A stretch of 64,000 nt of DNA from Bacteroidales bacterium (GCA_021108325.1 JAIORB010000133.1:1937-65936), one strand, 5' to 3'; shown: positions 36,845 to 58,910, counted from the first letter of the stretch. Notes: a model not told the origin generated them from the sequence alone. Program-made: numbers and translations.

Positions 36845-37576
36845 ATGCTGAAACACACAGACAACATAATCGAAGTTAAAAATCTGGTGAAAAAATTCGG
36901 AAGCTTTGTTGCTAACGATAATTTAACTTTTAATGTTAAAAAGGGAGAAATATTTGGATTCCTGGGAGCAAACGGGGCAGGGAAAACAACTGCATTAAGA
37001 ATATTATCAGGTTTATCTTACCCAACATCAGGCGAGGTAACAGTTGCAGGATTTGATGTTTATAAAGAAGGTGAAAAAGTAAAGAAAAACATTGGTTATA
37101 TGAGCCAGAAATTCTCGCTATACGAGGACCTGACAGTTCGTGAGAATATTCGATTTTATGGTGGCATTTATGGTTTATCGAACAAATACATTAAAGAAAA
37201 AACTGAATCTTTACTTGAACGCCTGAAAATGAAAGATATTCAAAATTCATTAATAAAATCATTGCCATTAGGCTGGAAGCAAAAAATTGCATTTTCGGTG
37301 GCCATTTTCCACAATCCTAAAATTGTATTTCTCGATGAACCAACAGGAGGTGTAGATCCTATCACTCGACGTGATTTTTGGGAAATGATTTATGAAGCAT
37401 CTGATTCGGGAATAACTGTTTTTGTAACAACACATTACATGGATGAGGCAGAATATTGTGACAGGGTTTCTATTATGGATCAGGGCAGGATAGAAGGGCT
37501 CGATACTCCGGGAGAATTAAAGAAACAATTTAATGCAAAAAACATGGACGAAGTATTTATAAAAATAGCAAGATAG
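36845..37576 (+). CDS. ABC transporter ATP-binding protein
   Basis: GANGAGKTT, LPLGWKQK, LDEPTGGVDP. Confidence 0.95.
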   Translation: MLKHTDNIIEVKNLVKKFGSFVANDNLTFNVKKGEIFGFLGANGAGKTTALRILSGLSYPTSGEVTVAGFDVYKEGEKVKKNIGYMSQKFSLYEDLTVRENIRFYGGIYGLSNKYIKEKTESLLERLKMKDIQNSLIKSLPLGWKQKIAFSVAIFHNPKIVFLDEPTGGVDPITRRDFWEMIYEASDSGITVFVTTHYMDEAEYCDRVSIMDQGRIEGLDTPGELKKQFNAKNMDEVFIKIAR

Positions 37577-37685
37577 TTTCAAATTTCAAATTGAAATCTC
37601 ATAATCAAAAACTTTAAACTAGAAACTTGTATAAAAAAGTGATAAAGAAGAAATTAAGTAGAATAGTTTATAAAAGCAAGAAAGC

Positions 37686-38792
37686 ATGAGTAGATTCCTC
37701 GGTTTTGTAAAAAAAGAATTTCATCATATTTTCAGAGATCCTCGGACAATGCTCATATTGTTTGGAATGCCTATAGCACAAATCCTGATTTTTGGTTATG
37801 TTGTTTCGAATGAGATTACAGACGTTAAAATTGGCGTTTACGATAAATCAAAAGATCATGTAACACACGAAATCACAAATAAAATAACTTCATCGGGATT
37901 TTTTATTTTAAGTGAAAATTTAAATTCTGATCAGGAAATTGAAGATGTATTTAAAAAAGGAATAATTCGTGAAGTGATTGTTTTCGAATCAAATTTTGCA
38001 GAAAAACTGGAACGTGATGGATCAGCAGGAATACAAATAATTGCTGATGCTTCCGATGCTAATACTGCGAATATTGTTACCAATTATACGCAGTCCATAA
38101 TAAACAATTATGTAAAAAATGAACTTTTAGCTCAGGGCTTACCTTACGAAATTGTACCTGAAGTTAGAATGCTTTATAATGATGAACTTAAAGGAGTTTA
38201 TATGTTTGTTCCCGGTACTATGGCATTAATTCTTATGCTTGTTTCAGCAATGATGACATCCATATCGATAGCGCGCGAAAAAGAAATGGGTACAATGGAA
38301 GTTTTATTGGTATCACCTTTAAAACCACTACCAATTGTAATTGGGAAAGTAATCCCTTATATGGTATTATCATTTATTAATGCAGTAGTAATTATTGCAT
38401 TAAGCTATTTTGTTTTCGAAATGCCAATACAGGGAAATCTGGTTTTTCTTTTACTCGAAACACTATTATTTATTTTTATGGCTCTTTCACTGGGAATACT
38501 AATATCAACAGCTAGTAACAGTCAATTAGTAGCCATGTTTATTTCAATGTTTGCACTAATGTTACCAACAATGTTATTATCAGGATTTATCTTTCCGATT
38601 GAGAATATGCCAAAAATATTACAATGGTTTAGCACTATTATGCCAGCCAGGTATTTCATTGTTATCGTTAAGAACATAATGATAAAAGGATCGGGCATTG
38701 GAATTGTTTGGAAAGAAACATTAATTATTGCAGGAATGACTGTTTTCTTTTTAGTAATGAGTATAAAAAAGTTCAAAGTAAGACTAGAATAG
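37686..38792 (+). CDS. ABC-2 type permease (YbhS-like)
   Basis: KKEFHHIFRD, SIAREKEMGTMEVLLVSP, LLSGFIFPIENMP. Confidence 0.92.
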   Translation: MSRFLGFVKKEFHHIFRDPRTMLILFGMPIAQILIFGYVVSNEITDVKIGVYDKSKDHVTHEITNKITSSGFFILSENLNSDQEIEDVFKKGIIREVIVFESNFAEKLERDGSAGIQIIADASDANTANIVTNYTQSIINNYVKNELLAQGLPYEIVPEVRMLYNDELKGVYMFVPGTMALILMLVSAMMTSISIAREKEMGTMEVLLVSPLKPLPIVIGKVIPYMVLSFINAVVIIALSYFVFEMPIQGNLVFLLLETLLFIFMALSLGILISTASNSQLVAMFISMFALMLPTMLLSGFIFPIENMPKILQWFSTIMPARYFIVIVKNIMIKGSGIGIVWKETLIIAGMTVFFLVMSIKKFKVRLE

Positions 38793-38896
38793 CTTTTGGC
38801 CTTTAGCCTTTAGAAAAAGTTAATAGCCAAAGGCTAACAGCTAATAGCCTATTAATTAGAATGATGAAATTGATATTATATTAATTTTTGATTAGA

Positions 38897-40015
38897 ATGA
38901 GAAAGATAAAATACATATTACAAAAAGAATTCATTCAGATTTTCAGAAACAAAACCATGTTACCAATGATTTTCGGAATACCTATTCTTCAGTTGGTGGT
39001 ATTAGTGCATGCTGCAACTTTGGAAATGAAATCTATTGATATGTATGTAGTCGATAAGGATTTATCCTCATTATCGCATAAATTGATCACTAAATTTGAT
39101 TTCTCGCCGTTTTATAATTTTTCAGGAGTTTCTTTTTCAATTGATGAAGCAAACGAAGCTATAGAAAAGAATCAAGCTGATTTTATAATTCACATTCCTT
39201 ATGGTTTTGAACGCGATTTAATACGTGAAAACTCGACCAAAGTGCAATTACTTATTGATGGAATTAACGGAATGGCTGCAAGCTTAATATATGCATACTC
39301 TTCAACAGTTATTTCAGACTTTAACCGAAATATTATTGTGGATTTAACACAAATGCCTGCCATAAAAGATTTGAATCCAATTGCGGTAGAAACATCATAT
39401 TGGTATAACCCGGAACTGAATTATAAAACTTATATGCTTCCTGGTATACTGGTAATTCTTGTAACAATTATAAGTATGTTTTTGGCAGCAATGAATATTG
39501 TTCGAGAGAAAGAAATTGGAACCATTGAACAGTTAAACGTAACGCCCATAGGTAAAATAGAATTTATAGTTGGGAAATTAGTTCCATTCCTGATTATCGC
39601 CCTGCTTGAGCTTGCATTTGGATTGGTTGTTGGTAAAATCTTTTTTCATATACCTATTATTGGTAGTTTGTGGTTATTGTTCGGATTTACAATTGTTTAT
39701 TTATTAGTGGTTTTAGGAATTGGATTGTTTATCTCAACAATTTCGTCAACTCAGCAGCAGGTCATGTTTATATGCTTCTTTTTTATGCTTGTTTTTATTC
39801 TGATGAGTGGAATTTTTACTCCAACGGAAAGCATGCCAACCTGGGCACAAAAAGTTAATATTATTAATCCGTTCTATTATTTTATGCGTGTTATCCGTAT
39901 GATCTTATTGAAAGGATCTGGATTCTGGGATATTTCACACGAATTTTTCAGCTTGCTTATTTATGCAACAATTATGTTAAGTTTATCGGTTTGGCGATAT
40001 AGAAAGGTAGCATAG
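38897..40015 (+). CDS. ABC-2 type permease (YbhR-like)
   Basis: KEFIQIFRN, NIVREKEIGTIEQLNVTP, MSGIFTPTESMP. Confidence 0.92.
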   Translation: MRKIKYILQKEFIQIFRNKTMLPMIFGIPILQLVVLVHAATLEMKSIDMYVVDKDLSSLSHKLITKFDFSPFYNFSGVSFSIDEANEAIEKNQADFIIHIPYGFERDLIRENSTKVQLLIDGINGMAASLIYAYSSTVISDFNRNIIVDLTQMPAIKDLNPIAVETSYWYNPELNYKTYMLPGILVILVTIISMFLAAMNIVREKEIGTIEQLNVTPIGKIEFIVGKLVPFLIIALLELAFGLVVGKIFFHIPIIGSLWLLFGFTIVYLLVVLGIGLFISTISSTQQQVMFICFFFMLVFILMSGIFTPTESMPTWAQKVNIINPFYYFMRVIRMILLKGSGFWDISHEFFSLLIYATIMLSLSVWRYRKVA

Positions 40016-40147
40016 CTCGTTGCAAGCTATTCTCTGTTGAAAGTATTCAGAAAAATGACTATTTTTGATATTGATAGGATAAGTTTAAAAAAAGATAATG
40101 AAGTATAAAAGCCCGAATTCAATATTATAATTAAAATTTATACAGAC

Positions 40148-41134
40148 ATGAAAAGAATTACAATTTACTACCTGTCGTTGTTTGTAATGGTATTTACATT
40201 GCTATTGACAAGCAGTTGTGAAAATGATTATCCTAATCTTGCACCGGGTAATATAATACTAATTTCGCCATTCTATTCTGCTATAGATATTTCATTGGAT
40301 GTATCGTTGTCATGGCAGGCAGCATCCGACCCCAACGGAAACGTCGTAACTTATGATGTTTATTTTGGTACTGAAACCACTCCTGTGACAGTTGTAAGTA
40401 GTAGTCAAACAGGTACGACTTATAGCCCGACACTTGCAGCTAACACGACTTACTACTGGAAAGTAGTTGCTAAAGACGGTAAAGGAGGAACAAGTGAAAG
40501 TGCAGTATGGAGTTTTACAACAGAAATTATTGTATGGAGTGATGCTACTCATGGCACCTTTACCGACCCTCGTGATAATAATAAATATGATGTGATAAAG
40601 ATAGGCGACCAGATATGGTTTGCCGAAAACCTGTCTTATGAGATTGCCGGCAAAGAAATAACTGATTATACACAATGGAGAACCAACTCCGCTTATGACG
40701 GATGGTGTTATTACAATAACGACAAAATTACTAATGGTAACATCTATGGTATATTGTACCAGTGGGAAGCGGCAAAAGTTGCCTGTCCTGTAGGTTGGCA
40801 TTTGCCTGTTGATTCAGAGTGGACAACACTAACCGATTATTTAGGAGGAGAAAGCGAAGCAGGGGGCAAACTAAAAGAATCTGGTACAATACATTGGAAT
40901 GCCCCCAACACCGGAGCAACAAATAGTAGTGGTTTTTCAGCTCTTCCTGGTGGCTACCGCTACAATCTTCTTGGTTCGTTCGATAATCTTGGTTACTTTG
41001 GCTTTTGGTGGTCGGCTACCGAGCATGACGAAACCACCGTTTGGAATCGCCACTTGGATTACGATAATGCAGAAACCAATCGATATTTCGAAAATAAGAT
41101 GACAGGGTGTTCTATTAGATGTATAAGGGATTAA
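40148..41134 (+). CDS. Lipoprotein with FN3-like domain and Fibrobacter succinogenes major paralogous (FISUMP) domain
   Basis: Lipobox TSSC; YDVYFG..L.ANTTYYWKVVAKD; FTDPRD..Y..IKIGDQIWFAENL, YG.LYQW, CPVGWHLP, SGFSALPGG, SIRCIRD. Confidence 0.9.
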   Translation: MKRITIYYLSLFVMVFTLLLTSSCENDYPNLAPGNIILISPFYSAIDISLDVSLSWQAASDPNGNVVTYDVYFGTETTPVTVVSSSQTGTTYSPTLAANTTYYWKVVAKDGKGGTSESAVWSFTTEIIVWSDATHGTFTDPRDNNKYDVIKIGDQIWFAENLSYEIAGKEITDYTQWRTNSAYDGWCYYNNDKITNGNIYGILYQWEAAKVACPVGWHLPVDSEWTTLTDYLGGESEAGGKLKESGTIHWNAPNTGATNSSGFSALPGGYRYNLLGSFDNLGYFGFWWSATEHDETTVWNRHLDYDNAETNRYFENKMTGCSIRCIRD

Positions 41135-41171
41135 TTTATTTTATTTTTTAATTAAATTCAATTCCAAATTT

Positions 41172-41283
41172 TTGCCCAAACAATACTTTAGTAATTATCA
41201 GCATGTTTGATAGTTTTTAAAATAATTTGTAGATTCACTACTTAATTAAATAGAAGGAACTTTTTACTTCTATTGACTAGTTA
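41172..41283 (+). repeat. 112-bp direct repeat A, putative attI-like/promoter segment ending at the G|TT crossover (41280)
   Basis: 107/112 identical to 58276-58387; identity stops immediately after ctaGTTA. Confidence 0.75.
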
Positions 41284-41301
41284 GCGGTAAATTTTATTGA
41301 A

Positions 41302-42216
41302 ATGAAAACACTTGAGCAAGAAATACAAAAAGCAACTTCAAAAATTGAAGATAAAAAAAGTATAATTGATAACGAGATTCAAAATCTGAATTCAAAGATA
41401 AATATCTATACTAAGTGGGCGTGGACATTTGTTTGGGTTGGTATTATTGTTACACTTTTTGCAATAATTTTTTATATTTCTGAAAATAATGAGACTGGAT
41501 TTGGTCTCAATTTATTAGGCGATTTTATGGCAGGGACAGTTGCATCTGTTTGGTCACTTGCAGGATTATTTTTTATATATGTAGCATTTTTAGGACAAAA
41601 ACAACAATTGCTTAACCAGCAATTAGAGATTATGTTTAGCCAATTAGAAGTTAAGTATACAAGATTGGAATTAGCAGGACAAAAGGAAGAAATGAAAGAA
41701 CAAAATGCTACTTTAAAACAGCAAAAATTTGAAAATACGTTTTTCCAATTATTGGCAAATCATAATACAATTGTAAATTCTCTTGATTTATCAGGGAGCG
41801 GGAGTCAAAGAGCAATAATAGCAACAGGGAGAGATTGTTTTGTTGTTTTTTACTCACGATTAAATGCAAAATTGCCAGGGGGTGTAACGCTTACTCTAAA
41901 TATGGTAATTAATTCATACTTAGCTTTTTTTAAAGAAAATGTTGCAGATTTAGGACATTATTTTAGAAATCTTTATCATATCATAAAGTTTGTTGACACA
42001 TCGGATATTGAAGACAAAAAGCAATACACAAATTTTGTTAGAGCTCAATTATCTGCTGGAGAATTAATAATCTTATTTTATAACTGCTTATCTGAATATG
42101 GTTTTGAGAAATTCAAGCCACTTATTGAGAAATACTCCTTATTAAAGAATATTGATGATTCATTAATTTTTAATTTGGCGGATAAGGATGTATATGAAAA
42201 AACTGCTTTTCACTAA
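41302..42216 (+). CDS. Putative phage abortive infection protein (putAbiC-like, 2 TM), cassette 1
   Basis: QQKFENTFFQLL, LGHYFRNLYHIIKFVD, YTNFVRAQLS..EL..LFYNCL, FKPLIEKYSLLKNI. Confidence 0.8.
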   Translation: MKTLEQEIQKATSKIEDKKSIIDNEIQNLNSKINIYTKWAWTFVWVGIIVTLFAIIFYISENNETGFGLNLLGDFMAGTVASVWSLAGLFFIYVAFLGQKQQLLNQQLEIMFSQLEVKYTRLELAGQKEEMKEQNATLKQQKFENTFFQLLANHNTIVNSLDLSGSGSQRAIIATGRDCFVVFYSRLNAKLPGGVTLTLNMVINSYLAFFKENVADLGHYFRNLYHIIKFVDTSDIEDKKQYTNFVRAQLSAGELIILFYNCLSEYGFEKFKPLIEKYSLLKNIDDSLIFNLADKDVYEKTAFH

Positions 42217-42223
42217 AATCAAC

Positions 42224-42355
42224 CGCTAACAGCGGGTCAAACTAAAGCTGGGGTTTTGTGGTTTGCATTCTTATTACTATCTTCAACTTTTATTAACGGG
42301 TGATACCGAAACAGGGCGAAAATCCCAGCCTCAGTTTACCCGCGGACCGTTAGGC
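42224..42355 (+). repeat. attC-like site 1 (132 bp)
   Basis: R'' CGCTAAC, R' GTTAGGC. Left arm gcgggt(c)aaactaaagctggg pairs with cccagcctcagtttacccgc, leaving one extra-helical C. Confidence 0.85.
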
Positions 42356-42368
42356 ATAATATTTTTAT

Positions 42369-42986
42369 ATGAAAAAAAGAACTTACATCATCATTTTTAG
42401 TTTACTTGTTTCGATTGTTTCTTGCAATGAACCTGAAGATATTGTTGAAAAAACTGATATTGACACTTTATTTGTTTCAAGTAATTTGAAAAAACATTTT
42501 TATGATATTAATACCACTTGGATATTTGAGTCTAACCAAGGAGAGAAAGATACAGTAACTCTGCTTAGAACTGAAAGAGAAATCTTAGAGCCTCAATCTA
42601 TGCATGGTGAGATACAGCTTGGGTATGTTGAAAATTACAAATTCCATTATTTGAGCACTAGAGATGGATTATATTGGGACCAATATATTGGATATGTTAT
42701 TGTTCGAAATGGTGTTGATTGGGCAAATGGAGAATATATTTATTTATCAAGTTATCAAATTGGCGATAGTTCTGACGAAGCTGAAATAGATACAATTTAT
42801 GACAGTTATAATGTTTCTGATACTACTTATAGAAATGTTGTGAGAATGCGAATTAATAATTTTGAATTCGAATTTGGTGAAAATTGGTATTATTATTTTG
42901 TTGATAGTGTTGGAATAATTAGAAAAGAGAAACTTAACGATGAGCCAAATAATGAAATTTGGAATTTAATCGATAGAAACATATAA
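42369..42986 (+). CDS. Hypothetical lipoprotein, cassette 2
   Basis: Lipobox IVSC; fills the space between attC1 and attC2. Confidence 0.8.
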   Translation: MKKRTYIIIFSLLVSIVSCNEPEDIVEKTDIDTLFVSSNLKKHFYDINTTWIFESNQGEKDTVTLLRTEREILEPQSMHGEIQLGYVENYKFHYLSTRDGLYWDQYIGYVIVRNGVDWANGEYIYLSSYQIGDSSDEAEIDTIYDSYNVSDTTYRNVVRMRINNFEFEFGENWYYYFVDSVGIIRKEKLNDEPNNEIWNLIDRNI

Positions 42987-42995
42987 AAATACAAT

Positions 42996-43128
42996 GCCTA
43001 ACAGCGGGTCAAACTAAAGCCGGGGTTTTGTGGTTTGCATTCTTATTACTATCTTCAAACTTTATTAACGGGTGATACTGAAACAGGGCGGGAAACCCGC
43101 ACAGCTTCAAACCCGCGGACCGTTATAA
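42996..43128 (+). repeat. attC-like site 2 (133 bp)
   Basis: R'' GCCTAAC, R' GTTATAA; left two-thirds nearly identical to attC1. Confidence 0.85.
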
Positions 43129-43469
43129 GTAAGGCGAAAAAAACAATCAGAATTCCGTTAAGTTAATCTCATTTTGATATTGAAATAATTGAATGTAAAA
43201 GTTCACTTTTTGAAAGGGAAGTTTCTTAATTAATAGGTTTTACTCTTATTGATAAAAACAAATTTGCTTGCCATCGCTCTTTTGCCTTACGGCAATTAGG
43301 ATAACCAACCCACACTTAAACACATTTGCTGCGCAAAAGAGCTTAAATTTTGCAATGTCTCATAGTTATATTTAATTCTTTCCCTAAAAAATATTAATTT
43401 AGACATCCTAAAGAAAAATGATAAATGAGTTTACTTCAGTCTTTCGTAGTAAAAAAATACCTGAACTAA

Positions 43470-44696
43470 ATGCCCAAAAAGAAAAAAAAGAAACCTGTAG
43501 TTTCAGCCAAAGTACAACAAGCCCAGAAATTCAATGATTTTAAAAAGCGTTTATTATTAATAGCAAAAGCCTGTGATGCTCTAGAAGAATTTAAGCTACT
43601 CCCCAAACGCGAACTGGAGTTTATGTTTTCTGCTCGATTTAAACCTTTCGATATAATTCCTTCGCAGGGGCAACAATTATCGCCAAAAAATTATAAGGAC
43701 TTAAAGCTACTTGTAAACTATTTTCTTAAAAAGGAAACCATTACATTTTTAGAAAATGGAGAAGAAATAAACTTGTATGAATATTATTATGTAGGCGATT
43801 CTTTACGTTCATGTATCCATGATTTAAAAGATGAAAAATTCAAAGGTGTAACTGAAATTATAAAAGCATTTAAACCATTATCCGACAAACACCTTGCACC
43901 CGATGGCCCACATAACCTTTTATTCGATATATCTAATCTAATGGCTGAATTATTAAGTCGTGTCAATAAAGGTTATTGGCTGTTTCATTATCATCTTATT
44001 AGCAGAAGCGAACCCTTTCCCGAATTTCGTACCTGTTTTAAAGTTGAGTTTGTAGCTCCAGAAATTATTCATATTGTAGAGAATGGTAATAAACGTCCAG
44101 CTTTTCGTGTGGGATGGACAATCTACGGTCAAAAAATAAGTTGGGCACAGATTACACCAAAGCAATTAAATATTAAAAGTGCTTTTAACGATTTAAAAAT
44201 TGATGTATATATACAAAGCCATGCTATAATAAGAATGAAAGAACGTCTCGACTGTATACCTGAAAACTTACATCACAATATCTTATCTCAGAGTATTAGG
44301 CGCTGGGAAACATCTACTAACAATCGTGCTCAAACCTTAATAGCTTATAAATTTGGCGAAACCAAATTAGGATACATGGTATATGAGTATAATCAGGGTG
44401 TTGTTTTAATCAAAACATTTTTGTTACTAACCAATAATGGCACCCCAGAGGGTAAAAAACTTAATAAGTTGCTTGGGCTTGAAAAATCAGATAAGAAATA
44501 TCTCAATATGGATAAACTTAGTCATTTTGTAAAGTCTGACATTCCTAATAACAAAGAACTTTACGCTCATTTTAAAGATGCAGGCTGTGATTGTTTATTC
44601 GAAGTTAACGAAAAGATTGTTAATCAAAACATCAATAAAAATATTCATGCTACATTAATTGAAGAATATATTAATTCGGTTGATAATGAAGAATAG
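43470..44696 (+). CDS. Hypothetical protein (cytoplasmic, Lys-rich N-terminus)
   Basis: 408-aa ORF; conserved-looking motifs VYIQSHAIIRMKERLD and IKTFLLLTNNGTPEG; function not recognised. Confidence 0.75.
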   Translation: MPKKKKKKPVVSAKVQQAQKFNDFKKRLLLIAKACDALEEFKLLPKRELEFMFSARFKPFDIIPSQGQQLSPKNYKDLKLLVNYFLKKETITFLENGEEINLYEYYYVGDSLRSCIHDLKDEKFKGVTEIIKAFKPLSDKHLAPDGPHNLLFDISNLMAELLSRVNKGYWLFHYHLISRSEPFPEFRTCFKVEFVAPEIIHIVENGNKRPAFRVGWTIYGQKISWAQITPKQLNIKSAFNDLKIDVYIQSHAIIRMKERLDCIPENLHHNILSQSIRRWETSTNNRAQTLIAYKFGETKLGYMVYEYNQGVVLIKTFLLLTNNGTPEGKKLNKLLGLEKSDKKYLNMDKLSHFVKSDIPNNKELYAHFKDAGCDCLFEVNEKIVNQNINKNIHATLIEEYINSVDNEE

Positions 44697-44923
44697 TTCT
44701 TATTTTATTTTTACATAAACATAGCCTTTAATTTACCTAACGTATTACCTGTTATTAAACAGGCTTTTTCTTGATTATATCTCACAAACATTTATTAATT
44801 TCGATTTAGAGAATTACTCTAATTAACAATTTATTAACCCATAATCTGAAAAAATATATTATTCGTAATCGATAAAGGCAGTATTGCATTTTCTATTATA
44901 AATTAATTACAATCTAAATTAAA

Positions 44924-45643
44924 ATGATTATGACAAAAAATCGAAATTACAAAGCTAAAGATGTTGATATGTTATTAGCATCAAAGACTATTGTTGAAAC
45001 TTTAAGAATGTACCAGTCAGATTTACTAATGGCTCGTAGTACTTGGACAGAAGAGTATGCAACTATATTAAGTACTAAAATTGATGATGCTATTGAAAAC
45101 CTGTTAGGCTTAGACAAAAAGAAAGAATTGAGAGATACTACAGCTCTTTTAAACTCTATTCAAGATCCAGCAAGACGTAACTTATCTTTCCTCAAAACAC
45201 AAATTGAAGTTGATTTTGGAAAGGACTCAAAAGAAATGATTAAAACATTGGGATTCAATAAATCTTTACGTGCAGTTCATCAAGGAGACCAAGAAGCTTT
45301 AATTGAATTACTTTATAGTTTCAAAAAAGGATTGTCAGAATCACTTAGAGCTAAGATGATAGAAAAAGGTACTAATCCTGAACTAATTGATAGTCTTATT
45401 GAATATGCAGATCAACTAAAACAAGCAAATTTAAGTCAAGAAAGCTTGAAAGAAACAACAAAAGTATTATCTGAAACTGCTATAAACACTTTTAATGAAA
45501 TTTATGCCGAAGTAATCGGAATTTGTAAAATTGCTTCTAGCTTTTTTCAATTTGATCCAATCAAAAAAGAGCAGTTTACTTTTACAAAAATAATAAGGAA
45601 CATGAATTCAGCAAAGAAAGTAGCAGAAACCGTTACAGAATAA
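44924..45643 (+). CDS. Hypothetical alpha-helical protein
   Basis: 239-aa ORF followed by hairpin cttcctcattc-ctcac-gaatgaggagg. Confidence 0.75.
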   Translation: MIMTKNRNYKAKDVDMLLASKTIVETLRMYQSDLLMARSTWTEEYATILSTKIDDAIENLLGLDKKKELRDTTALLNSIQDPARRNLSFLKTQIEVDFGKDSKEMIKTLGFNKSLRAVHQGDQEALIELLYSFKKGLSESLRAKMIEKGTNPELIDSLIEYADQLKQANLSQESLKETTKVLSETAINTFNEIYAEVIGICKIASSFFQFDPIKKEQFTFTKIIRNMNSAKKVAETVTE

Positions 45644-45709
45644 GCACTACAAACACTTCAAACTTCCTCATTCCTCACGAATGAGGAGGTAATTTTATAT
45701 CGATAACAA

Positions 45710-45980
45710 GTCAACACACACCGACAACAGTTCATAGAAGTACGAAGCCAATTCAGCACTGGTAGATGCCAATTCAGCTAAGATAGATAAGAGTTCAGCG
45801 AAAGCGGAAATAAATTCAGCTAAAGTAGAAGCTATTTCAGTGAAAGCGGAAGCTAATTCAGCACAGGTAGATGGAAGTTCAGCTAAGGTAGACAAGAGTT
45901 CAGTACAGGCGGAATTGAATTCAGCTAAGGTAGCTGACAATTCAGCACAGGCGGAAGCTAATTCAGCACTGGTAGATAGA
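45710..45980. repeat. Degenerate 21-bp tandem repeat (~13 units)
   Basis: TTCA recurs at 45731, 45752, 45773 ... 45962, exactly every 21 bp. Confidence 0.85.
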
Positions 45981-46188
45981 AGGACAAAACCCTTTACCAA
46001 TCGCTATTACAAACACTTTGTTAATCCCACACAATCCAAACGCAAAACCAAAGGCTTTACAATAAGTTTGTAATCCTACCCTATTTTGCACTATCGTGCA
46101 ATAAGTATTTCCTCCCTAAAACAAATTTGTTGGTTCTTCGTGGTTAGTTTTTAACAAACTGACAAGTCAGAATATCACAATGCCCAAT

Positions 46189-46321
46189 TTGTAACATTGG
46201 GTCAAATTTAAACTCGGTTTTGGTGGTTTGCAAACGTTTTCCTATCTTCAAACTTTATTAGCGGGGGATAATGAAACAAGGCGAAAAACCCGCACAGCTT
46301 CAAACCCGCGGACCGTTAACG
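46189..46321 (+). repeat. attC-like site 3 (133 bp)
   Basis: R'' TTGTAAC, R' GTTAACG; right arm cccgcacagcttcaaacccgcggaccgtt identical to attC2 and attC5. Confidence 0.8.
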
Positions 46322-46363
46322 GTAATTAATATGCACGATAAAATAAATTTAAACTATAATGAT

Positions 46364-46813
46364 ATGAAACATTCTTTTTTAATCCTATTGACAATTTTTT
46401 TCCTTGTATCTTGTAATTCAACTAAAAAGGTAGGAAGCATTGATTATGGCAGTCCAAATAAGAAACAGGAGTTATTAAATGATTTAACATTTAAAGTAGA
46501 TGCATACAGTAACGACAAAACATACGGTTATACAGAAAAGAATCCTATAATGGTTGGAGGCAATTCCGAAGGACCAAAAAATGAAAGAAGGTTTTTAAAT
46601 GCTTTATCTGGACCAAATGGTGAAAATCTTGAATATTATAGAATTGGGAGTTGTTGTATGTTTACGACAAAAAACGGTAGTTTTGGTGGTAGTGGAATGC
46701 TAGATATGTATAGTATTAATTATCCTGGTCTTGATAAGGACATAACTTTATACATTAACATGTATGACTCAGATACACTAAAAGTACCTGTAGGTTTTAA
46801 ATTGAAAGATTAA
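46364..46813 (+). CDS. Hypothetical lipoprotein, cassette
   Basis: Start ATG 46364 (MKHSFLILL..LVSC); YGYTEKNPIMVGG..GPKNERRFLNALSGPNGE..YYRIGSCC..G.LD.Y. Confidence 0.8.
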   Translation: MKHSFLILLTIFFLVSCNSTKKVGSIDYGSPNKKQELLNDLTFKVDAYSNDKTYGYTEKNPIMVGGNSEGPKNERRFLNALSGPNGENLEYYRIGSCCMFTTKNGSFGGSGMLDMYSINYPGLDKDITLYINMYDSDTLKVPVGFKLKD

Positions 46814-46817
46814 CTGT

Positions 46818-46948
46818 TGCTAACATCGGGTCTTAAAGCATACGGGGTTTTGGTGTTTTGCAAACTTTGTACGATCTTCAACTTTTTCCAACGGGGGATA
46901 GCGAAACAAGGCAAAAATCCCTGTCAAATTTTAAGCTGACCGTTAGGC
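46818..46948 (+). repeat. attC-like site 4 (131 bp)
   Basis: R'' TGCTAAC, R' GTTAGGC; homologous core ggttttggtg..ttgcaaac..atcttcaac..gaaacaaggc. Confidence 0.8.
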
Positions 46949-47000
46949 AACATAAACTCGGCAAAAAATAATCTCCTTCACATTTGGATAGTGTTAAAAA

Positions 47001-47019
47001 AGTACTTATATTTGTACTT
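47001..47019 (+). promoter_or_regulatory. TA cassette promoter (-7 TATATTTG) flanked by GTAC-core operator repeats
   Basis: agtact-tatattt-gtactt; GTAC-core palindromes are the known YefM operator type. Confidence 0.6.
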
Positions 47020-47044
47020 GAATAGATACTTAAAATAATAGATT

Positions 47045-47299
47045 ATGATAGCAGCAAATTACACAGAATTTAGAACTAAGTTGAAGGACTTTCTTGATGC
47101 TGTAGAAGCTAATAATGAGACATTAATTATTAAGCGTGGGACAGGGAAAGGAACAGTAATGATTTCTTTAGATGAATATAATTCAATTATGGAAACTGTT
47201 CATTTATTAAGTTCCAAGACAAATGCTGATAGATTGTATGAATCAATTCGTCAAATGAAAGAAGGAAATATTATTACTGAAAATTTAATTGAAGAATAA
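47045..47299 (+). CDS. yefM: Phd/YefM family antitoxin
   Basis: NYTEFRTKLKDFLD.V...VMISLDEYNSIMETVHLLSS..NA.RL..SI.Q. Confidence 0.93.
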   Translation: MIAANYTEFRTKLKDFLDAVEANNETLIIKRGTGKGTVMISLDEYNSIMETVHLLSSKTNADRLYESIRQMKEGNIITENLIEE

Positions 47300-47559
47300 T
47301 GAGAATAATATTTTCAAAAATCTCTTGGGGAGATTATACTTCATGGTTGCATGAAGATAAAAAAATACTAAAGAAAATTAATGACTTAATAAAAGACATC
47401 CAAAGAAATCCATATGAAGGAAAAGGGAAACCGGAACCTTTAAAATATGATTTATCTGGATATTGGTCTCGCCGAATAGATAGAGAACATAGATTGGTAT
47501 ATCAGGTTGATGAAAACGAAATTCGAATTTATAGTTGTAAATATCATTATGACAAGTAG
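47299..47559 (+). CDS. yoeB: Txe/YoeB family toxin
   Basis: KINDLIKDIQRNPYEGKGKPEPLKYDLSGYWSRRIDREHRLVY..CKYHY; 1-bp overlap with yefM. Confidence 0.95.
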   Translation: MRIIFSKISWGDYTSWLHEDKKILKKINDLIKDIQRNPYEGKGKPEPLKYDLSGYWSRRIDREHRLVYQVDENEIRIYSCKYHYDK

Positions 47560-47569
47560 TATTTATGTT

Positions 47570-47739
47570 GCCTAACACGCAATCAAAGTACATACGGTCC
47601 CGATAATTATCGGGATTGGTGGTATTTTGACAACCTGCTTGCCAGCAGGCAAGTTTTTGTTATCTTTAACTTTCGGTAACGGTGGACACTGAAACAAAGC
47701 GAAAATCCCGCACAGCTTCAAACCCGCGGACCGTTAAAA
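47570..47739 (+). repeat. attC-like site 5 (170 bp, lengthened by two mini-palindrome insertions)
   Basis: R'' GCCTAAC, R' GTTAAAA; inserts tcccgataattatcggga (47598-47615) and cctgcttgccagcaggcaag (47634-47653). Confidence 0.8.
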
Positions 47740-47892
47740 GCAACGGTATGACATACAAAAAAAAATAATTTTGACACATCTTGATAGTTTCTCGACTGAC
47801 AAGAACAAAAAATAAAAGTGGAGACCAGCGACCACTCAAAAAAACGGGGCAAGATCGAAAAGCCAAATGAGTAGAAATTATATTTAAATTTA

Positions 47893-48522
47893 ATGACTAT
47901 GTTTATTAAAAGGAATTTTCTCTGGATTATATTTTTTGGTTCATTGATTGGATTAAATGAAACACTTATTGGTAGCTTTAATATACCCTACCGCTCAGTT
48001 ATTTTAAGCTCAATAACTTTAACAATATTATCACTTGCTCGACTAAAAATTCCAAAAACTGGAACATCAATTTTAATTATGTTAGTTGCTATTCTTTTCA
48101 AAATAAATAGTTTTGGAGTTCATTCATGTACAACTAATATGCTTTTATGTGGACCAACAGCACTTCTTTTACTTGGAATAGCTTATGAAATATTTGCATC
48201 TTTATTTATTTCAAAAAACACATTCAAATATTTAAACTATGTATTGACCTGTAGTGTAACTTCCTTCGTAGCCTTCAGTTTTTTTGCAGTAATGAATACT
48301 TACATCATTAGCGTTTGGGATACGTCCAGACTATTTGAGTATATCTTTGTCAGAGCGACATTAACAGCTGTTTTATCAAGTGCTATTAGTATATTTGGAT
48401 TATACTTAGTAAGAACTTTTGAAAAAGAGCATTTTTTAAGACTTAATCCGTTTGTTATTAATAGTATATTAGGCTGCGTGATTATTGCACTTTGGTTGTT
48501 TGGGTCTTATGTGAAATTTTAG
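47893..48522 (+). CDS. Hypothetical multi-pass membrane protein, cassette
   Basis: 209 aa, about 6 hydrophobic segments; bounded by attC5 and attC6. Confidence 0.75.
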   Translation: MTMFIKRNFLWIIFFGSLIGLNETLIGSFNIPYRSVILSSITLTILSLARLKIPKTGTSILIMLVAILFKINSFGVHSCTTNMLLCGPTALLLLGIAYEIFASLFISKNTFKYLNYVLTCSVTSFVAFSFFAVMNTYIISVWDTSRLFEYIFVRATLTAVLSSAISIFGLYLVRTFEKEHFLRLNPFVINSILGCVIIALWLFGSYVKF

Positions 48523-48609
48523 AGACAATATAACTTTTTATTATTGGAATGCTCTTTAAATAATAGATTGAAAGTTTATTAAAACAAAACCTGAGTAAAA
48601 CTAAACCAG

Positions 48610-48745
48610 CCCATAACAGCGGGTCTTAAAGCATGCGGGATTTTGGTAGGATTTTGACAACCTGCTTGCCAGCAGGCAAGTTCTTGTTATCTTTAACTTT
48701 CGGTAACGGGGTCCCAATAGTTATGGGATGAAACAGGGCGAAAAA
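48610..48745 (+). repeat. attC-like site 6 (truncated; right arm and R' missing)
   Basis: CCATAAC agcgggtcttaaagc... is homologous to attC4/5 up to gaaacagggcgaaaa, then no ggaccGTT follows. Confidence 0.7.
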
Positions 48746-48854
48746 ATGAAATTAGGGAAATCTTATCTCACTTTGCAAACATAGGAGCTTAAATTTTGCC
48801 TTCTCTTCACTTATCGGTTTTGGAAAAAATCATTGTATCCTACTGATTTTACTT

Positions 48855-49964
48855 TTAAGAAATCTGTGGTATTGTGAAAATGAATTTACTACCTTTCTTA
48901 ACTTCACTTTCAACCCAAATTTTCCCACCGTGTTTTTCAACAAACTCTTTACACAATATTAAGCCTAAGCCTGTTCCTGCTTCTTCTTCGGTTCCTTTGG
49001 TTGAAATGTTTTCTGTTATTTTAAATAATTTGCTTTGTATTTCGGGTGGAATTCCCACTCCGCTATCTTTTACAGATATTTCTGCAAATTTTTGATTATT
49101 ATTATCTGTTATTGTATGTGATTTTATAGTAATATCGCCTCCTTTGGGTGTAAACTTTATTGCATTCGATATTAAATTTCGTATTACTGTATCTATCATA
49201 TTTTTATCGGCATTCACAAACAAGCTGTTGTCTGTATTTGCTATTAGTTTTATTTCCTTATTTTCAGCAGTTTCTGTCAATAATAAAATTATTTCATTTA
49301 TTAATGTTTCGATATTGATTTTTTCTGGTGTGAATTCAATTCGCCCTGATTGAGATTGTGCCCATGTAAGCAAATTTTCTAGTAATTTGAAAGTTTTTAT
49401 TGAACCATCATTAATAAACTTGATATATGTTTCACGCTCTTCATCATCAATTGTTGCATGACTTTCTAATAAGAGATTCGAAAAACCCAACAATGCAGTG
49501 AAAGGGCTTTTTAAGTCGTGTGCAATTATCGAGAAAAATTTGTCTTTTGTTGCATTTAAAAGTTTAATTTCTTTATAACTTTCTGATAATTTTAACATGG
49601 AATATACTCTTGCCGATAATTCAGTTTTATCTATTGGTTTTCGTATATAGTCAACAGCTCCTGCTTCTAAGGCTGTTTTCAAATGTTCAGATGTTGTCAT
49701 TTTTCCGGTACACATGATAACAGGAATATCGGCTGTTGTTTCGAAGCGTTTTAAACATTTTAAAGTTTCAATACCATCCATTTCAGGCATTTCCCAATCC
49801 AGAATTATTAAATCAGGAAGTTTTTTTTCTGCAAGCGTACATGCAATTTTTCCGTTTGGAGCTTTAAGAATTGTTAAGGATAATTCTGTTTCCTTCAAAA
49901 AACTTGAAATGGTTTTCAAGTTGTCCTGACTATCGTCAACTACCAGTATTGAATAATTTTCCAT
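48855..49964 (-). CDS. Hybrid response regulator-histidine kinase (REC-HisKA-HATPase)
   Basis: ILVVDD, PDLIILDWEMPEMDG, DYIRKP; FSIIAHDLKSP; RNLISNAIKFT, DSGVGI, GTGLGL. Confidence 0.93.
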   Translation of the reverse strand: MENYSILVVDDSQDNLKTISSFLKETELSLTILKAPNGKIACTLAEKKLPDLIILDWEMPEMDGIETLKCLKRFETTADIPVIMCTGKMTTSEHLKTALEAGAVDYIRKPIDKTELSARVYSMLKLSESYKEIKLLNATKDKFFSIIAHDLKSPFTALLGFSNLLLESHATIDDEERETYIKFINDGSIKTFKLLENLLTWAQSQSGRIEFTPEKINIETLINEIILLLTETAENKEIKLIANTDNSLFVNADKNMIDTVIRNLISNAIKFTPKGGDITIKSHTITDNNNQKFAEISVKDSGVGIPPEIQSKLFKITENISTKGTEEEAGTGLGLILCKEFVEKHGGKIWVESEVKKGSKFIFTIPQIS

Positions 49965-49991
49965 AGTAAAAAATTTATTATCAGTTATATT

Positions 49992-52900
49992 TTAATCAAT
50001 TAAATGAATCAGCTTTTTATACTTTTCTTCATTTAAGGCATCAATGGCATTAACTATTTCTGCTTTCCACTTTTGTAAATTTTCAGTTTTGCTGCAATCT
50101 AATTGTTCTATTATTTTTTCAACTTCTGTTGATTCATATACTTCCAGTTCTTGTAGTTTCAATAAAAATGGTTTTAGAATTTCTTTCTCAGTTGATGTTA
50201 ACTCAATAGCTTTTTCTTCTATTACTTCTTCTTCGATAGTTATTTCTTCATCTCCCTGATAGCCTAATGGTAAAGTAAACCAGAAAATACTACCCTCGTT
50301 TTCTTCTGATTCTACATTTATTTCACCTCCGTGAGCTTCTACGAATAATTTACAAAAAGTAAGTCCAATACCTGTTGATCTTCCCAATCCTGATTTTCTG
50401 GCTATTACTTGTTCAAATTTACCAAAAACTGTATGTAATTTTTCTTTTGGTATTCCTTGTCCGGTATCCGTTACTTTAATCCGAATAAAATCAGGTGAGT
50501 ATTCTTCAGAATCAAGCGTAATAGTTCCATTATTGGGAGTGTATTTTATTGCATTTGTGAGTAAATTAATAAAAACCCGTTCGATTATTTCAGGGTCGAT
50601 ATCAACATAATAATTTTGAATGCGATTTATTAATTTAATACTTTTTTGGTGGTAAAGTAAATCAACTTGCGACAGCGCTAATTTTGATAATTCGTATATA
50701 GAAGTATTTGATGTTTGTATTTTTATTTCGGTATTTTCGAATTTATTAACATCCAGAATATTCATTATCATATTTAGCATTTGCTTACCCGATTGTTTTA
50801 CAATATCGCTTTCTGCTAAACCGATAATTGCATTAAGCGGGTTTTTTAAATCGTGAATTATCATTCCTGTTAATTCTTCTTTAAATTGGTCTAACTCTAT
50901 GAGTTTATCGTTTGCTGTTTGTAGTTCTTCTGCCTGTGAAGATATTTCTTCTTTTTGTAGTTCAATACAATGGAATGCATCTGCATTTTCAAGGGCTATA
51001 GATGTGTAAACAGCTATATTTTTCAGAATGTTTAAATGATAATCAGTAAATGCATTTATTTTTGGATTTTGTATTGTAATTACACCTATTTTTTTTGTGG
51101 TTGTAAGGGGTAAATATATTAAAGACTCATGAATCGCATTTTTTTTGTAAAACAATTTATCAGAAACATATTTTTTATATTCTTTTGAATAATTGTTTAA
51201 AAGAATTTCTTTTTGATTTTCAAAACACCAGACCGATAAAAGGTTTTTATTTTCTAATAAGTCTGAACTTTTAAGTATATCTCCATCCAGCCTTTCAAGA
51301 CCAAAAAAGTCTATGCTTTCTTTCTCAGGATTATGAATACCGATAGAAAATATTGGTGTTTCTATTAAATCATTAACATTTTCATACGTTGTTTTTAAAA
51401 TCTTCTCAACTGACAAATTTGCAATTATCTGCTGGCCTATTTGGCTCAACAACTGAACATTGTGATATGATTTTATTATTTTTTCTTTTTGTTGTTCCAA
51501 TTTTATACTTTTTTCTTCAATATCATCCTTCTGCGTTAAAATTTCATTAGTTCTTTCTTTTACTTTTTCTTCTAAGTATTCTTTTTCCTTTATCAAATTC
51601 TTTTCTCTGATCTTTATATAAAGTGCTATTAATAAAATAATTGTTATTATTATTATAGTAATAAACCACCAAGATTTATAGAAGGGCGGTATAATCTTTA
51701 TTTTAAGTTCCGTTGAAGTTTCATTCCAGACTTTATCGTTGTTACTTCCTTTTACTTTAAAAGTATATGTGCCTGGATTAAGATTTGTAAATGTTGCTGA
51801 CTTCATATTCTGAACATCAATCCAATCCTCATCTAAGCCTTCCAGCATATATTTATATTGATTTTGTTTAGGAGATGTATAATCTAAAGCGGCAAACTCA
51901 ATAGTAAAGAAATAGTCCTTTTTTGTTAATACAATTTGTTTATAATTAGCATTAAAATACAGATATGGAGAAACATAGCTATCCCAAACAGATTTATTAA
52001 GAATTTTAAAATCAGTAATATTAACCTTAGGAAGATAAGGGTTGCCTATTACTTCAAGTGGATTAAAATACGTTAATGCCTGATTACTCCCGAAGTACAT
52101 TATTCCGTCATCAGATTTAAAAACGGCATTTCTGGAAAACCCGCTACTCTCAATTCCTTCAATAAAAGTATAGTTAATTAGTTTGTTGTCTCCAGCTGAA
52201 TATTTTGATAAACTTCTGGATGTACTTATCCACAAATTACCTAAATCATCTTCAAGTATCCCAACTATCATATTACTTAGAAGCTCATTATTTTTCGGAT
52301 GAGCAACAAAGTTCATATTATTATAATCGAATTTAATTAATCCATTTGATTCAGTTCCAATCCAGAGATTTTCATTAAGATCTTCAAATAATATAGAAAC
52401 ATGAATATCTCTTTTAAATACAGAGTCTTTAATTTTTGAAGGATTATAATTAATAAATTCACCAGTATCAGGCTTAAATAGGAATAGTCCACCTGCATAT
52501 GATCCAACCCATAAGCGTCCATTACTGTCTAAAAAAATATCACTTATATAATTGTCAATAAATTGTTGCGATTTTTTTGTGTTATGATAGTATTTTTCGA
52601 ATATATAATCATTAGGAGTACCCTTTTTTACTAATTTATTCAATCCATATGCCGTCGCTATCCATATTGTTCCGGCTTCATCCTCGATTATCGTATTAAT
52701 AATATTATTGCTTATGCTTGAATCATTATTTTCTGTAGGCAAATATCTGGTGAAATTATATGTACCATTCCTATATTCAATTCTATTTAAGCCTCCCATG
52801 TACGTTCCTACCCAAATTATTCCATTTTTATCTACTAATACAGACCATACTCTATTTGCACTTAGTGAATTATTATCTATTGGATTTTGTTTAAAATGAT

Positions 52901-58088: not shown

Positions 58089-58275
58089 ATTCAGGGATTT
58101 TGAACTGCTTAATGTACAACTATTTAATGAAAACATCAAACAAAATGATTGTTTATTCTTATTTACCAGTGCTTTATGGTACTAATTCCAAAACCCTATT
58201 ACAAACACATTGGCAAGCCTGCTTGGTCAGCAGATAAATGTCTTTCGCTTTTTTTGTTTATCAAATCCAAAATTA

Positions 58276-58387
58276 TTGCCCAAACAATACTTTAGTAATT
58301 ATCAGCATGTTTGATAGTTATTAAAATAATTTGTAGATTCACTACTTAATTGAATAGAAGGAGCTTTTTGCTTCTATTTACTAGTTA
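58276..58387 (+). repeat. 112-bp direct repeat B (attI-like), ending at G|TTAATC (58384)
   Basis: Five mismatches versus 41172-41283. Confidence 0.75.
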
Positions 58388-58457: not shown

Positions 58458-58910
58458 ATGAATGTAAAAAAAGTTCTTTTTGCAGGTTTAATTTCAGGAC
58501 TTATCATGGGCATTGCATTGTTTTTAAGCGGTGCTATTGCATCAAGGATAGTCTATGGTCCACAAATGGTTCCTGAAGGTAAATTTGAACCTGATCAGAT
58601 CAATGCTTTTTATTTCTTTTGGACCAAATTAGTAATTGGTGGTTTTTTTGGTATTATATTTACTTTAATATACTCGAGATTAGTAAGGTATATGAATTTT
58701 GCAGGCATTCTTAAAGGTTTATTATTTGGTTTTCTACTGTGGTTAATTATTTCGCTTTGGGACATTTCTCATCCTTTGATGTATGAATCTATCGCAACTA
58801 TAAACCAATTATTCTGGAATATTTATACACTTGGCGGCTTTTTGGCTTATGGCGCTATTGTCGGCTTTATCTTTAAGAAATGGATTAAAGAAAATTATGC
58901 AAAAGAATAA
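58458..58910 (+). CDS. Hypothetical 4-TM membrane protein
   Basis: 150 aa, four hydrophobic helices, aggag before ATG. Confidence 0.75.
   Translation: MNVKKVLFAGLISGLIMGIALFLSGAIASRIVYGPQMVPEGKFEPDQINAFYFFWTKLVIGGFFGIIFTLIYSRLVRYMNFAGILKGLLFGFLLWLIISLWDISHPLMYESIATINQLFWNIYTLGGFLAYGAIVGFIFKKWIKENYAKE

Follow-up and report, generated by a model that had tools for sequence, protein, structure and literature searches.

Knowledge of integrons rests on one type of enzyme, the IntI integrase with its extra domain, and on one type of recombination site, attC. The Vibrio superintegron with its VCR (Vibrio cholerae repeat) sites is an example of a sedentary chromosomal integron, while in Xer-dependent dif modules genes are flanked by short (~28 bp) XerC-XerD sites in alternating orientation. 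According to the accessible part of a preprint (10.1101/2022.02.06.479319), archaeal integrons have their attI immediately downstream of intI, and the orientation of typical Spirochaetota IntIs is reversed. Surveys that rely on the IntI and attC models find hardly any integrons in Bacteroidetes: in the accessible text of the IntegronFinder 2 paper (PMC9024848), the only finds there are In0 elements and a single complete integron, that of Salinibacter, and the authors describe it as intriguing that some large clades lack integrons. Excerpts of two further sources list Bacteroidota among the clades earlier found without integrons (a 2024 preprint, 10.1101/2024.07.02.601686) and among the phyla with detected integrons (a 2021 review, PMC8618304). 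No description of an integron-like system with an integrase lacking the IntI-specific insertion was found for Bacteroidia or Bacteroidota in a literature search that excluded supplements and subscription journals. The subject of the present analysis is a gene-cassette array in a 64,000-nt stretch of a Bacteroidales bacterium genome (GCA_021108325.1, JAIORB010000133.1:1937-65936), hereafter the window. Positions 41139-48750 of this window quite probably constitute one array of a Bacteroidia-type integron with a non-canonical integrase.

The window corresponds to contig C13:1937-65936 of the genome G000, a 3.7-Mb draft in 160 contigs (98% complete). From 41280 to ~48750, it contained six head-to-tail units on the + strand, each with one or two open reading frames (ORFs) followed by a TAAC...GTTA repeat. 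The case for an integron is built on the observed anatomy of the array, the covariation of its sites, the complementarity between the start and end of individual cassettes, the co-location of integrase and arrays, and cassette-exact variation between strains. Taken together, they indicate an array that is real and probably active, of integron type. Sites were scored with a covariance model (R1) built on alignment A4, which holds 52 sites: 48 distinct sites of G008, a complete one-contig genome of the same genus, and four sites of the window. The features of the array are the following, with bit scores referring to R1.

41139..41279, + strand: array head, a conserved non-coding element of ~140 nt ending in ...CTTCTATTGACTA directly before the first GTTA
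41280..42348, + strand: cassette A, with ORF 41302-42216 (304 aa, AbiP/putAbiC-like abortive-infection protein) and site r1
42227..42352, + strand: site r1, 126 nt, TAAC...GTTA, 118.2 bits (C13:44163-44288), included in A4
42349..43121, + strand: cassette B, with ORF 42369-42986 (205 aa) and site r2
42999..43125, + strand: site r2, 127 nt, 102.3 bits
43122..46314, + strand: cassette C, atypical (3.2 kb), with ORFs 43470-44696 (408 aa) and 44924-45643 (239 aa), ending in site r3
46192..46318, + strand: site r3, 127 nt, 84.3 bits
46315..46941, + strand: cassette D, with ORF 46364-46813 (149 aa from the second ATG) and site r4
46821..46945, + strand: site r4, 125 nt, 75.8 bits
46942..47732, + strand: cassette E, with the YefM antitoxin (47045-47299) and YoeB toxin (47299-47559) genes and site r5
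47573..47736, + strand: site r5, 164 nt with two hairpin insertions, 42.4 bits
47733..48747, + strand: cassette F, with a DUF805 RNA motif (47813-47881), ORF 47893-48522 (209 aa) and the truncated site r6, at the end of the array
48614 to ~48747, + strand: site r6, right arm missing, matching model positions 3-105 only

An earlier note, made by a model from the sequence, had described six related repeats after ORF stops and had proposed that the starts and ends of some cassettes are reverse complements of each other. All six repeats were recovered, each past an ORF stop on the + strand, and the paired strings quoted for three cassettes were present where it had placed them: GTTAGCGGT (41280) and ACCGCTAAC (42222) in cassette A, GTTAGGCAT (42349) and ATGCCTAAC (42994) in cassette B, and GTTAGGCAACAT (46942) and ATGTTGCCTAAC (47565) in cassette E. 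For two of them the inverted repeat was longer than the note had reported, reaching 23 nt in cassette A (41280-41302 / 42208-42230, 87%) and in cassette B (42349-42371 / 42980-43002, 91%); in cassette E, 15 nt were complementary with zero mismatches. The remaining three, which it had called imperfect or unmatched, behaved as described, with partly complementary ends in C and D and no match in F.

The same property was quantified in G008 by comparing the 14 nt past each GTT with the reverse complement of the 14 nt preceding the next AAC (threshold, at least 10 positions). Own-cassette pairs passed in 34 of 45 cases, compared with 4/55 same-site pairs and 64/2916 other pairs. Positions 7-8 of the own-cassette pairs were mismatched nearly always, which suggests a conserved 2-nt bubble. 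This complementarity is the pattern expected if a circular cassette opens at G|TT.

Cassettes also varied between species and strains. At least 10 further species of the genus carried the YefM/YoeB cassette, with different neighbors. The sequence preceding its TAAC end was common to all 10 species examined, and the shared GTTA start followed a site-like right arm in seven of the 10, the arm itself differing between species. Only G041 showed BLAST homology over the entire cassette (window 46940-47577); elsewhere the homology began ~50 nt inside it.

At the strain level, Logan contigs from four metagenome runs (X1-X4) were compared over window positions 37000-53000. One contig of run X3 joined 41279 to 46942, and the 5662 nt missing from it were exactly cassettes A-D (1069+773+3193+627); at the joint, five letters fit either side. 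The left-flank contig of X3 (37000-41237) showed 47 differences from the window, and X3 had hardly any depth in cassettes A and C. Run X2 had one contig that skipped 47624-48650 (cassette F) and another that contained F. The X2 joint, from 47623 to 48651, fell within a 32-nt stretch identical in r5 and r6, and could reflect homologous recombination or an assembly path. As the X3 contig lacks cassettes A-D, gene content between the repeats varies among close strains; an invariant gene order was what the earlier note had named as a refutation of its proposal. The note's central claim of an integron-type cassette array with crossover at or next to G|TT, the exact phosphodiester bond fitting anywhere within GTTA, is borne out by own-end complementarity, by a strain variant without exactly four cassettes, and by a cassette that species share and whose homology stops at GTTA and TAAC. 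Other joints (such as 46914 to 46284, which goes back 631, and 43334 to 48785) were left unused: they came from other studies, showed 90-95% likeness with sides <35 nt, and may derive from other organisms or repeats.

The genome-wide search with a custom covariance model, which the earlier note had suggested, identified 18 full-length sites on 11 contigs of G000 (R1). With nhmmer, 24 matches passed E<1e-3; they were spread over 12 contigs and often lay where a contig ends. G008 contained 55 full-length sites of 127-132 nt. In the common fold of the sites, the R stem TAAC/GTTA was invariant or nearly so and was followed by a one-sided spacer, with 1 unpaired A on the left versus 5 nt on the right (RRAMC; GGACC in the genus). 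Past the spacer came an L stem of ~12 covarying bp, a GC-rich stem, and a variable center with small hairpins. In the layout drawn for the genus, the L stem was counted as 6 bp and varied among sites (GCGGGT/ACCCGC, TTGGGT/ACCCAA, CGCGTT/AACGCG, GCAAGT/ACTTGC and others), with an invariant unpaired C and then two more stems ahead of the center.

Under the hand-drawn structure, 85.7% of the cells were paired in the genus sites (A4, n=52), compared with 35-39% when partners were slid, and the covariation score was 0.361 versus 0.05-0.08 for slid partners, a value reached by none of 500 shuffles. A second alignment (A7), comprising the 45 best R1 matches from 28 loci of other lineages and fitted to R1, gave 87.4% paired cells versus 35-38% slid and a covariation of 0.513, again reached by 0/500 shuffles. 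In the L stem (helix 2), 11 of the 12 pairs were altered on both sides in A4 and all 12 in A7, where 28/31 pairs overall were altered on both sides (45 sites, 28 loci). An extra-helical C that had been remarked in the left arm of the first site (C12) was invariant in the 52 genus sites; in 40 of the 45 other-lineage sites it was a gap, unlike the left A and the right 5-nt RRAMC spacer, which were kept there. Unpaired central motifs such as TGAAAC were kept within the genus (A4). The repeats are thus attC-type inverted repeats, as first proposed, without being canonical attC sites, given their length of ~126 nt, their 1-nt versus 5-nt spacer and their conserved central part. No Rfam family matched them at gathering score or at E<=1. 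A scanner for TAAC/L-box/GTTA had a background of 0.3-0.7 per 10 kb, rising in the AT-rich window to ~1 per 10 kb, and was used as a supporting ratio only.

Further folding evidence was mixed. Only r1 and r4 formed whole-site hairpins in single-sequence DNA folds, which were run without shuffled controls and whose energies were left unused. On the top strand, wobble pairs in the P3 stem amounted to 37 A.C versus 0 G.T in the genus and 20 versus 0 in the wider set, favoring the bottom strand, whereas in the central hairpin they amounted to 63 G.T versus 16 A.C in the genus and 21 versus 7 in the wider set, favoring the top strand.

The earlier note had found no tyrosine recombinase in the 64 kb, and the PF00589 matches of G000 indeed lay on contigs C33, C2 and C48, not on C13. 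Among eight candidates scored, three were PF00589 proteins: two were XerC/D-like (314 and 296 aa; C33 and C2), and the third was an IntI/XerA-like integrase of 374 aa (C48:209-1330). No protein exceeded the cut-off of the canonical IntI model TIGR02249 in G000, G008, G003 or G015. The C48 integrase matched this model in two pieces (2-180 and 238-315; 209 bits versus a cut-off of 265), and its homologues in G008, G003 and G015 gave the same two-piece match. It also scored 226.3 bits, above the cut-off of 220, against NF040815 ('site-specific tyrosine recombinase/integron integrase'), a score that assigns no function since the family name itself covers 'integron integrase'. When aligned with VchIntIA (IntI4; 2a3v), residues 98-271 corresponded to 6-179 and residues 293-369 to 244-320. 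The IntI-specific insertion is therefore absent from the C48 integrase, which has 21 residues where VchIntIA has 64. The protein aligned end to end with XerA (5hxy, E 6.8e-43), and XerA and IntI4 were its best structural matches. R227, K252, H316, R319, H342 and Y351, which we take to be the catalytic set of a tyrosine recombinase, were invariant in 28 homologues.

The extra N-terminal part (residues 1-95) had no match in Pfam. Residues 1-70 were modeled as a beta-beta-alpha-beta-beta-alpha domain with a predicted local distance difference test (pLDDT) score of 90, and the idea that this is a structure-specific DNA-binding domain may serve as a lead only. It had no clear structural relative: the best Foldseek match was the SMARCAL1 HARP domain (E 0.035), and VIA-align gave Z values <=5.2 (CASTOR2, the T4 UvsW N-terminus, eIF2D/SUI1-type chains, the XPB N-terminus), all in a range that the tool treats as common.

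In a quick tree, 28 proteins of the family and six canonical IntIs were split from the two XerC/D-like proteins of G000 with a Shimodaira-Hasegawa-like approximate likelihood ratio test (SH-aLRT) value of 100. These two Xer proteins were the outgroups, XerA being left out, and the canonical IntIs sat on a long branch. They were placed inside the Bacteroidia family with weak support (85-86), the order within the group being unresolved, and only the split of the C48-type family and IntIs from the XerC/D-like proteins is claimed from this phylogeny. That the enzyme might be a non-canonical IntI had been guessed from the window, and the guess fits, canonical IntI being found neither in G000 nor in the complete G008. 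The accompanying idea that the enzyme acts in trans needs amending: a candidate integrase lies on C48 with an attI-like junction, ~55 nt past which the contig ends, and its absence from the window is partly due to the assembly, since homologues lie directly upstream of arrays in better assemblies.

In G008, the integrase homologue (1398533-1399672, +) was followed 2 kb downstream by the first of 68 site matches, all of which lay on the + strand and formed a 133-kb array (1401735-1534630). The first site past the integrase, on the same strand, was at 2.4 kb in G003 and at 7 kb in G015. A search of 37 genomes in the genus recovered the integrase in 22, and many of the contigs carrying it ended 70-600 nt past its stop, as expected before a repeat array. 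When 24 genus genomes were searched both ways, 12 had sites and integrase, nine sites only, one the integrase only and two neither; eight of the nine integrase-less genomes with sites were 63-91% complete, and the ninth (G016) 97%.

Outside the genus, the best 80 of 564 loci with integrase relatives (36-67% identity) were kept, and 54 of them were scored with R1. These 80 belonged to Flavobacterium, Algoriphagus, Chitinophaga, Pseudopedobacter, Marinilabilia, Paludibacter, Crocinitomicaceae, an Ignavibacteria metagenome-assembled genome and others. A BLAST self-repeat count in the 54 loci found arrays only in some and was replaced by R1 because diverged sites escape it. R1 yielded 55 matches at E<=0.1 in 28 loci, and all 55 shared the strand of the integrase and lay downstream of it. 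Conversely, among five genomes picked by their sites alone, four had a full-length integrase upstream on the same strand at 0.7-54 kb, and in the fifth the integrase and sites were on different contigs. In the class sample, a site at E<=1e-5 was present in 38/151 genomes and 32/101 genera, with strict filters and 22 candidates scored per genome. The integron-like system thus seems widespread in Bacteroidia. Canonical IntI exceeded its cut-off in 113 of the 401 genomes sampled from the phylum. Within the class or order of the window, 59 genomes matched the IntI model at E<=1e-25, one (G119) above the cut-off and 58 below it; here the piece structure was examined for G000, whose protein matches in two pieces.

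Four copies of the array head were present in G000 (41139-41279, 58250-58383, and one each on C129 and C19), and all diverged to the right of ...TA|GTT. Past the C129 copy, too, came a cassette with a start matching its own end. Over its final 30 nt, the head resembled the integrase-proximal attI candidate (TAGAnGGAAC...ACTA|GTTA). In five of six close genomes, the ~150 nt past the integrase stop were conserved up to AGAACTA|GTTA (ACAACTA in G017) and unrelated beyond. The C48 integrase gene lay 167 nt upstream of such a junction, and the contig ended ~55 nt past the GTTA of that junction. The head also contained a TAATTTG motif (41223-41229) resembling what we take to be the Bacteroidetes -7 box, and is a candidate attI-like entry point, perhaps with a promoter. 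With an attI-like head of its own at the start, the array is more than an orphan cluster. The head copy at 58250-58383 ended in ...CTATTTACTA|GTTAATCG and was followed by ORFs 58458-58910 and 59001-59642 with no site detected; it may be cassette-less or precede a cassette minus its site.

A few observations accompany these loci. The stretch leading from the attI candidate to the first site in G008 (L035:5875-7166) contained two ORFs of 136 and 233 aa, which could form an insertion sequence. G561:C1, the only contig of a genome from another family, carried two full-length integrase genes, one upstream of a same-strand array whose nearest listed site is ~16 kb away, the other with a single site 2 kb downstream, and several shorter or stop-containing integrase-like frames occurred in or near the array (4338394, 4372467). 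In Flavobacterium limicola, a Flavo-1 RNA (RF01705, 46.9 bits, gathering 42) was located at L083:9836-9910 (-), ~90 nt upstream of the array-linked integrase gene and on the opposite strand; it was the sole Rfam match in five integrase/array loci.

If the array works as an integron, a tyrosine recombinase would excise and insert cassettes through strand exchange at, or adjacent to, G|TT in the R stem. Whatever bases follow GTT would then travel with the next cassette and hence pair with that cassette's own end. The likely recombinase would be the C48-type 374-aa integrase, whose homologues lie directly upstream of arrays on the same strand. A folded single-stranded site could offer R and L duplex arms around the one-sided 5-nt spacer, a two-arm layout that would mimic the core site of a tyrosine recombinase, the duplex junction being without such symmetry. 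The partner of the exchange would be the attI-like ...ACTA|GTTA or another site, as for IntI. In place of the IntI insertion, the N-terminal domain is the obvious candidate for recognizing the fold.

Several findings weigh against the integron interpretation. Two of the four head copies (58250-58383 and C19) were followed by ORFs without detected sites, three of the six window cassettes lacked clear own-end complementarity, the arms of r5 paired poorly at the L stem, and r6 was truncated, so that part of the window array may be decaying. Regarding the fold, the A4 structure was drawn from the very sequences scored and A7 was fitted to R1, and RNAalifold predicted zero pairs on a MAFFT alignment of 16 G000 sites, a null result explained by the misalignment of the arms there. 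The wobble counts point to different strands and do not settle the folding strand. Each strain joint is one Logan metagenome contig, and the 72 nt on the head side of the X3 joint could come from another head copy. In G000, the integrase and arrays were on separate contigs, and 9/21 site-bearing genus genomes yielded no integrase at E<=1e-60. The missing insertion is, moreover, described as essential for integron function in the accessible parts of two sources (PMC8138268; 10.1101/2022.02.06.479319), the former of which, by Smyshlyaev et al., also calls it 'not fully conserved' in an integron-like subgroup. Recombination, single-strand folding and its strand, the acting enzyme and any role of the N-terminal domain are what we infer from these sequence patterns.

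Among the competing explanations, sites might be moved by the housekeeping XerC/XerD or another host recombinase in the manner of dif modules, leaving the neighboring integrase with another task. G000 does possess two XerC/D-like genes (C33, C2), the array-linked integrase has a Xer-like architecture, and nine site-bearing genomes of the genus yielded no integrase. Such an arrangement is nevertheless very unlikely: the ~126-nt sites in one orientation lack the short two-arm dif layout (by reading of the alignment, without a dif model), position and strand tie the integrase to the sites throughout the class (55/55; 4/5), and the conserved region past the integrase gene stops exactly at |GTTA. 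An ordinary clustered set of attC sites that lacks an integron integrase (CALIN), with normal attC sites and a canonical, insertion-bearing IntI missing from the draft or recently lost, would suit a 160-contig assembly that is 98% complete. The accessible text of PMC9024848 states that CALINs occur commonly and that fragmented assemblies raise their count, and canonical IntI is frequent elsewhere in the phylum (113/401 genomes). The one-contig G008, with its 68-site array and no TIGR02249 match above the cut-off, makes this highly improbable, as do the single genome (G119) above the IntI cut-off among 59 matching genomes of the class or order and the arrays that adjoin an insertion-less integrase.

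Two further explanations concern the repeat itself. It might be chiefly a sense-strand RNA element, placed at the 3' ends of cassettes, for processing, stability or insulation, in an array now static and with the cassette pattern as a relic. The richness of the central hairpin in top-strand G.T (63 versus 16 A.C; 21 versus 7), the conserved unpaired central motifs such as TGAAAC within the genus, and the defects of r5 and r6 in the window would agree with this, whereas the own-end pairing, the cassette-exact difference between samples and the integrase link would be left unexplained. As a replacement for a cassette system it is very improbable, and an RNA role could rather be a second function. 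Finally, a miniature transposable element (MITE or REP-like) spreading between genes would also be multi-copy, ~126 nt long, bounded by terminal inverted TAAC/GTTA and prone to break assemblies. It is hardly credible here, since 68/68 copies in G008 are in one orientation within one 133-kb region and the flanks are complementary per cassette (34/45), not per copy (4/55).

The cargo matched the earlier expectation that toxin-antitoxin (TA) and anti-phage genes are typical of such cassettes, comprising the YefM/YoeB pair (PF02604, 5.6e-18; PF06769, 5.2e-39; TIGR02116, 2.9e-36) and the AbiP/AbiC-like protein of cassette A (PF16872 putAbiC, 2.4e-25; PADLOC AbiP, 1.2e-17). The ORFs of cassettes B and D and both ORFs of cassette C had no family match in Pfam, NCBIfam, PADLOC or PHROG. 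The membrane-like ORF of cassette F (47893-48522) likewise had no family match, with Pfam searched at E<=0.01, and hence no DUF805 match. The DUF805 RNA motif (47813-47881, +; Rfam RF03081, 77.1 bits), which ends 12 nt ahead of this ORF, is a candidate riboswitch-like element riding as cassette cargo.

Cassette C was flanked by non-coding segments (~43126-43353 and 46004-46190), both multi-copy across the genus, which may represent a second mobile or structured element using the sites. The left segment contained an inverted repeat, GCTCTTTTGC...GCAAAAGAGC. Within the cassette, a 21-nt tandem repeat (45731-45982) had seven in-register copies and was overlapped by ORFs 45695-46000 (-) and 45840-46073 (+). 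A string similar to the inverted repeat of the left segment, ...AGAGCTTAAATTTTGC (window 48780-48806), was located past the truncated r6 and was also found past one site of contig C3. The array is preceded by the following genes.

37686-41134, + strand: three consecutive ORFs (368, 375 and 328 aa), upstream of the array

The last of these contained a FISUMP / Fib_succ_major domain (TIGR02145, 2.1e-40), and in the 95%-identical relative G002 ~1.3 kb extra was present between the FISUMP gene and the head.

Beyond the window, the balance tips slightly toward a broader proposal, in which Bacteroidia, a class considered nearly free of integrons, carry their own old and widespread integron lineage. 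Its integrase would lack the IntI domain considered essential for recognizing folded attC, having never had it or having lost it, its ~126-nt hairpin sites with a one-sided 5-nt spacer would perhaps be read by the N-terminal domain, and its arrays could extend past 130 kb, with several heads possible per genome. If active, the system would show that cassette capture is possible without the IntI insertion, would provide a natural comparison for the recognition of folded sites, and would open a large unexplored cassette pool with culturable Flavobacterium species as test beds. Under the broader proposal, current integron finders would be missing a major cassette reservoir in Bacteroidia of marine, soil and gut habitats, made up of defence genes, TA genes and genes of unknown role.

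Compared with sedentary chromosomal integrons, the locus shares long arrays in which short, closely spaced ORFs on one strand each precede a species-typical imperfect palindrome ...AAC/GTT..., with own-end complementarity. It also shares a cargo of TA and abortive-infection genes, the presence of a tyrosine recombinase together with a conserved junction at one array end, and sites that across lineages keep their structure more than their sequence. The attC-like ends (R''...AAC / GTT...R', paired L boxes, variable center) are present, as is own-end complementarity at G|TT (34/45 in G008, 3/6 in the window). It differs in that the C48 integrase lacks the IntI-specific domain near patch III (21 versus 64 residues) and has ~95 extra N-terminal residues, that the site has a 1-nt versus 5-nt spacer and a near-fixed length of 125-132 nt, and that several attI-like heads lie distant from the integrase in one genome. 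Because the integrase fails the test that defines IntI, the array is filed neither as a canonical integron nor as a plain CALIN.

The integrase lies on the cassette strand with an attI candidate just past its stop, as in archaeal and 'reverse orientation' Spirochaetota integrons, whose integrases, unlike the present one, retain the IntI-specific additional domain according to the accessible text of 10.1101/2022.02.06.479319. With at least two sites and no integrase within 64 kb, the window resembles a CALIN as defined in the accessible parts of PMC8618304 and PMC9024848; unlike a CALIN, its array starts from an attI-like head, and the genome has a candidate cognate integrase. The catalytic and core-binding domains of this integrase align end to end with XerA. 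Unlike XerA and the XerC-XerD dif system, the integrase is encoded by a dedicated gene beside arrays, has an extra N-terminal domain and coexists with separate XerC/D-like genes. The sites, too, are unlike the ~28-bp dif-like sites of alternating orientation found in Xer/dif modules, being one-orientation hairpins of typically 126 nt (125-164 nt in the window, all on one strand), as judged from the alignment without a dif model.

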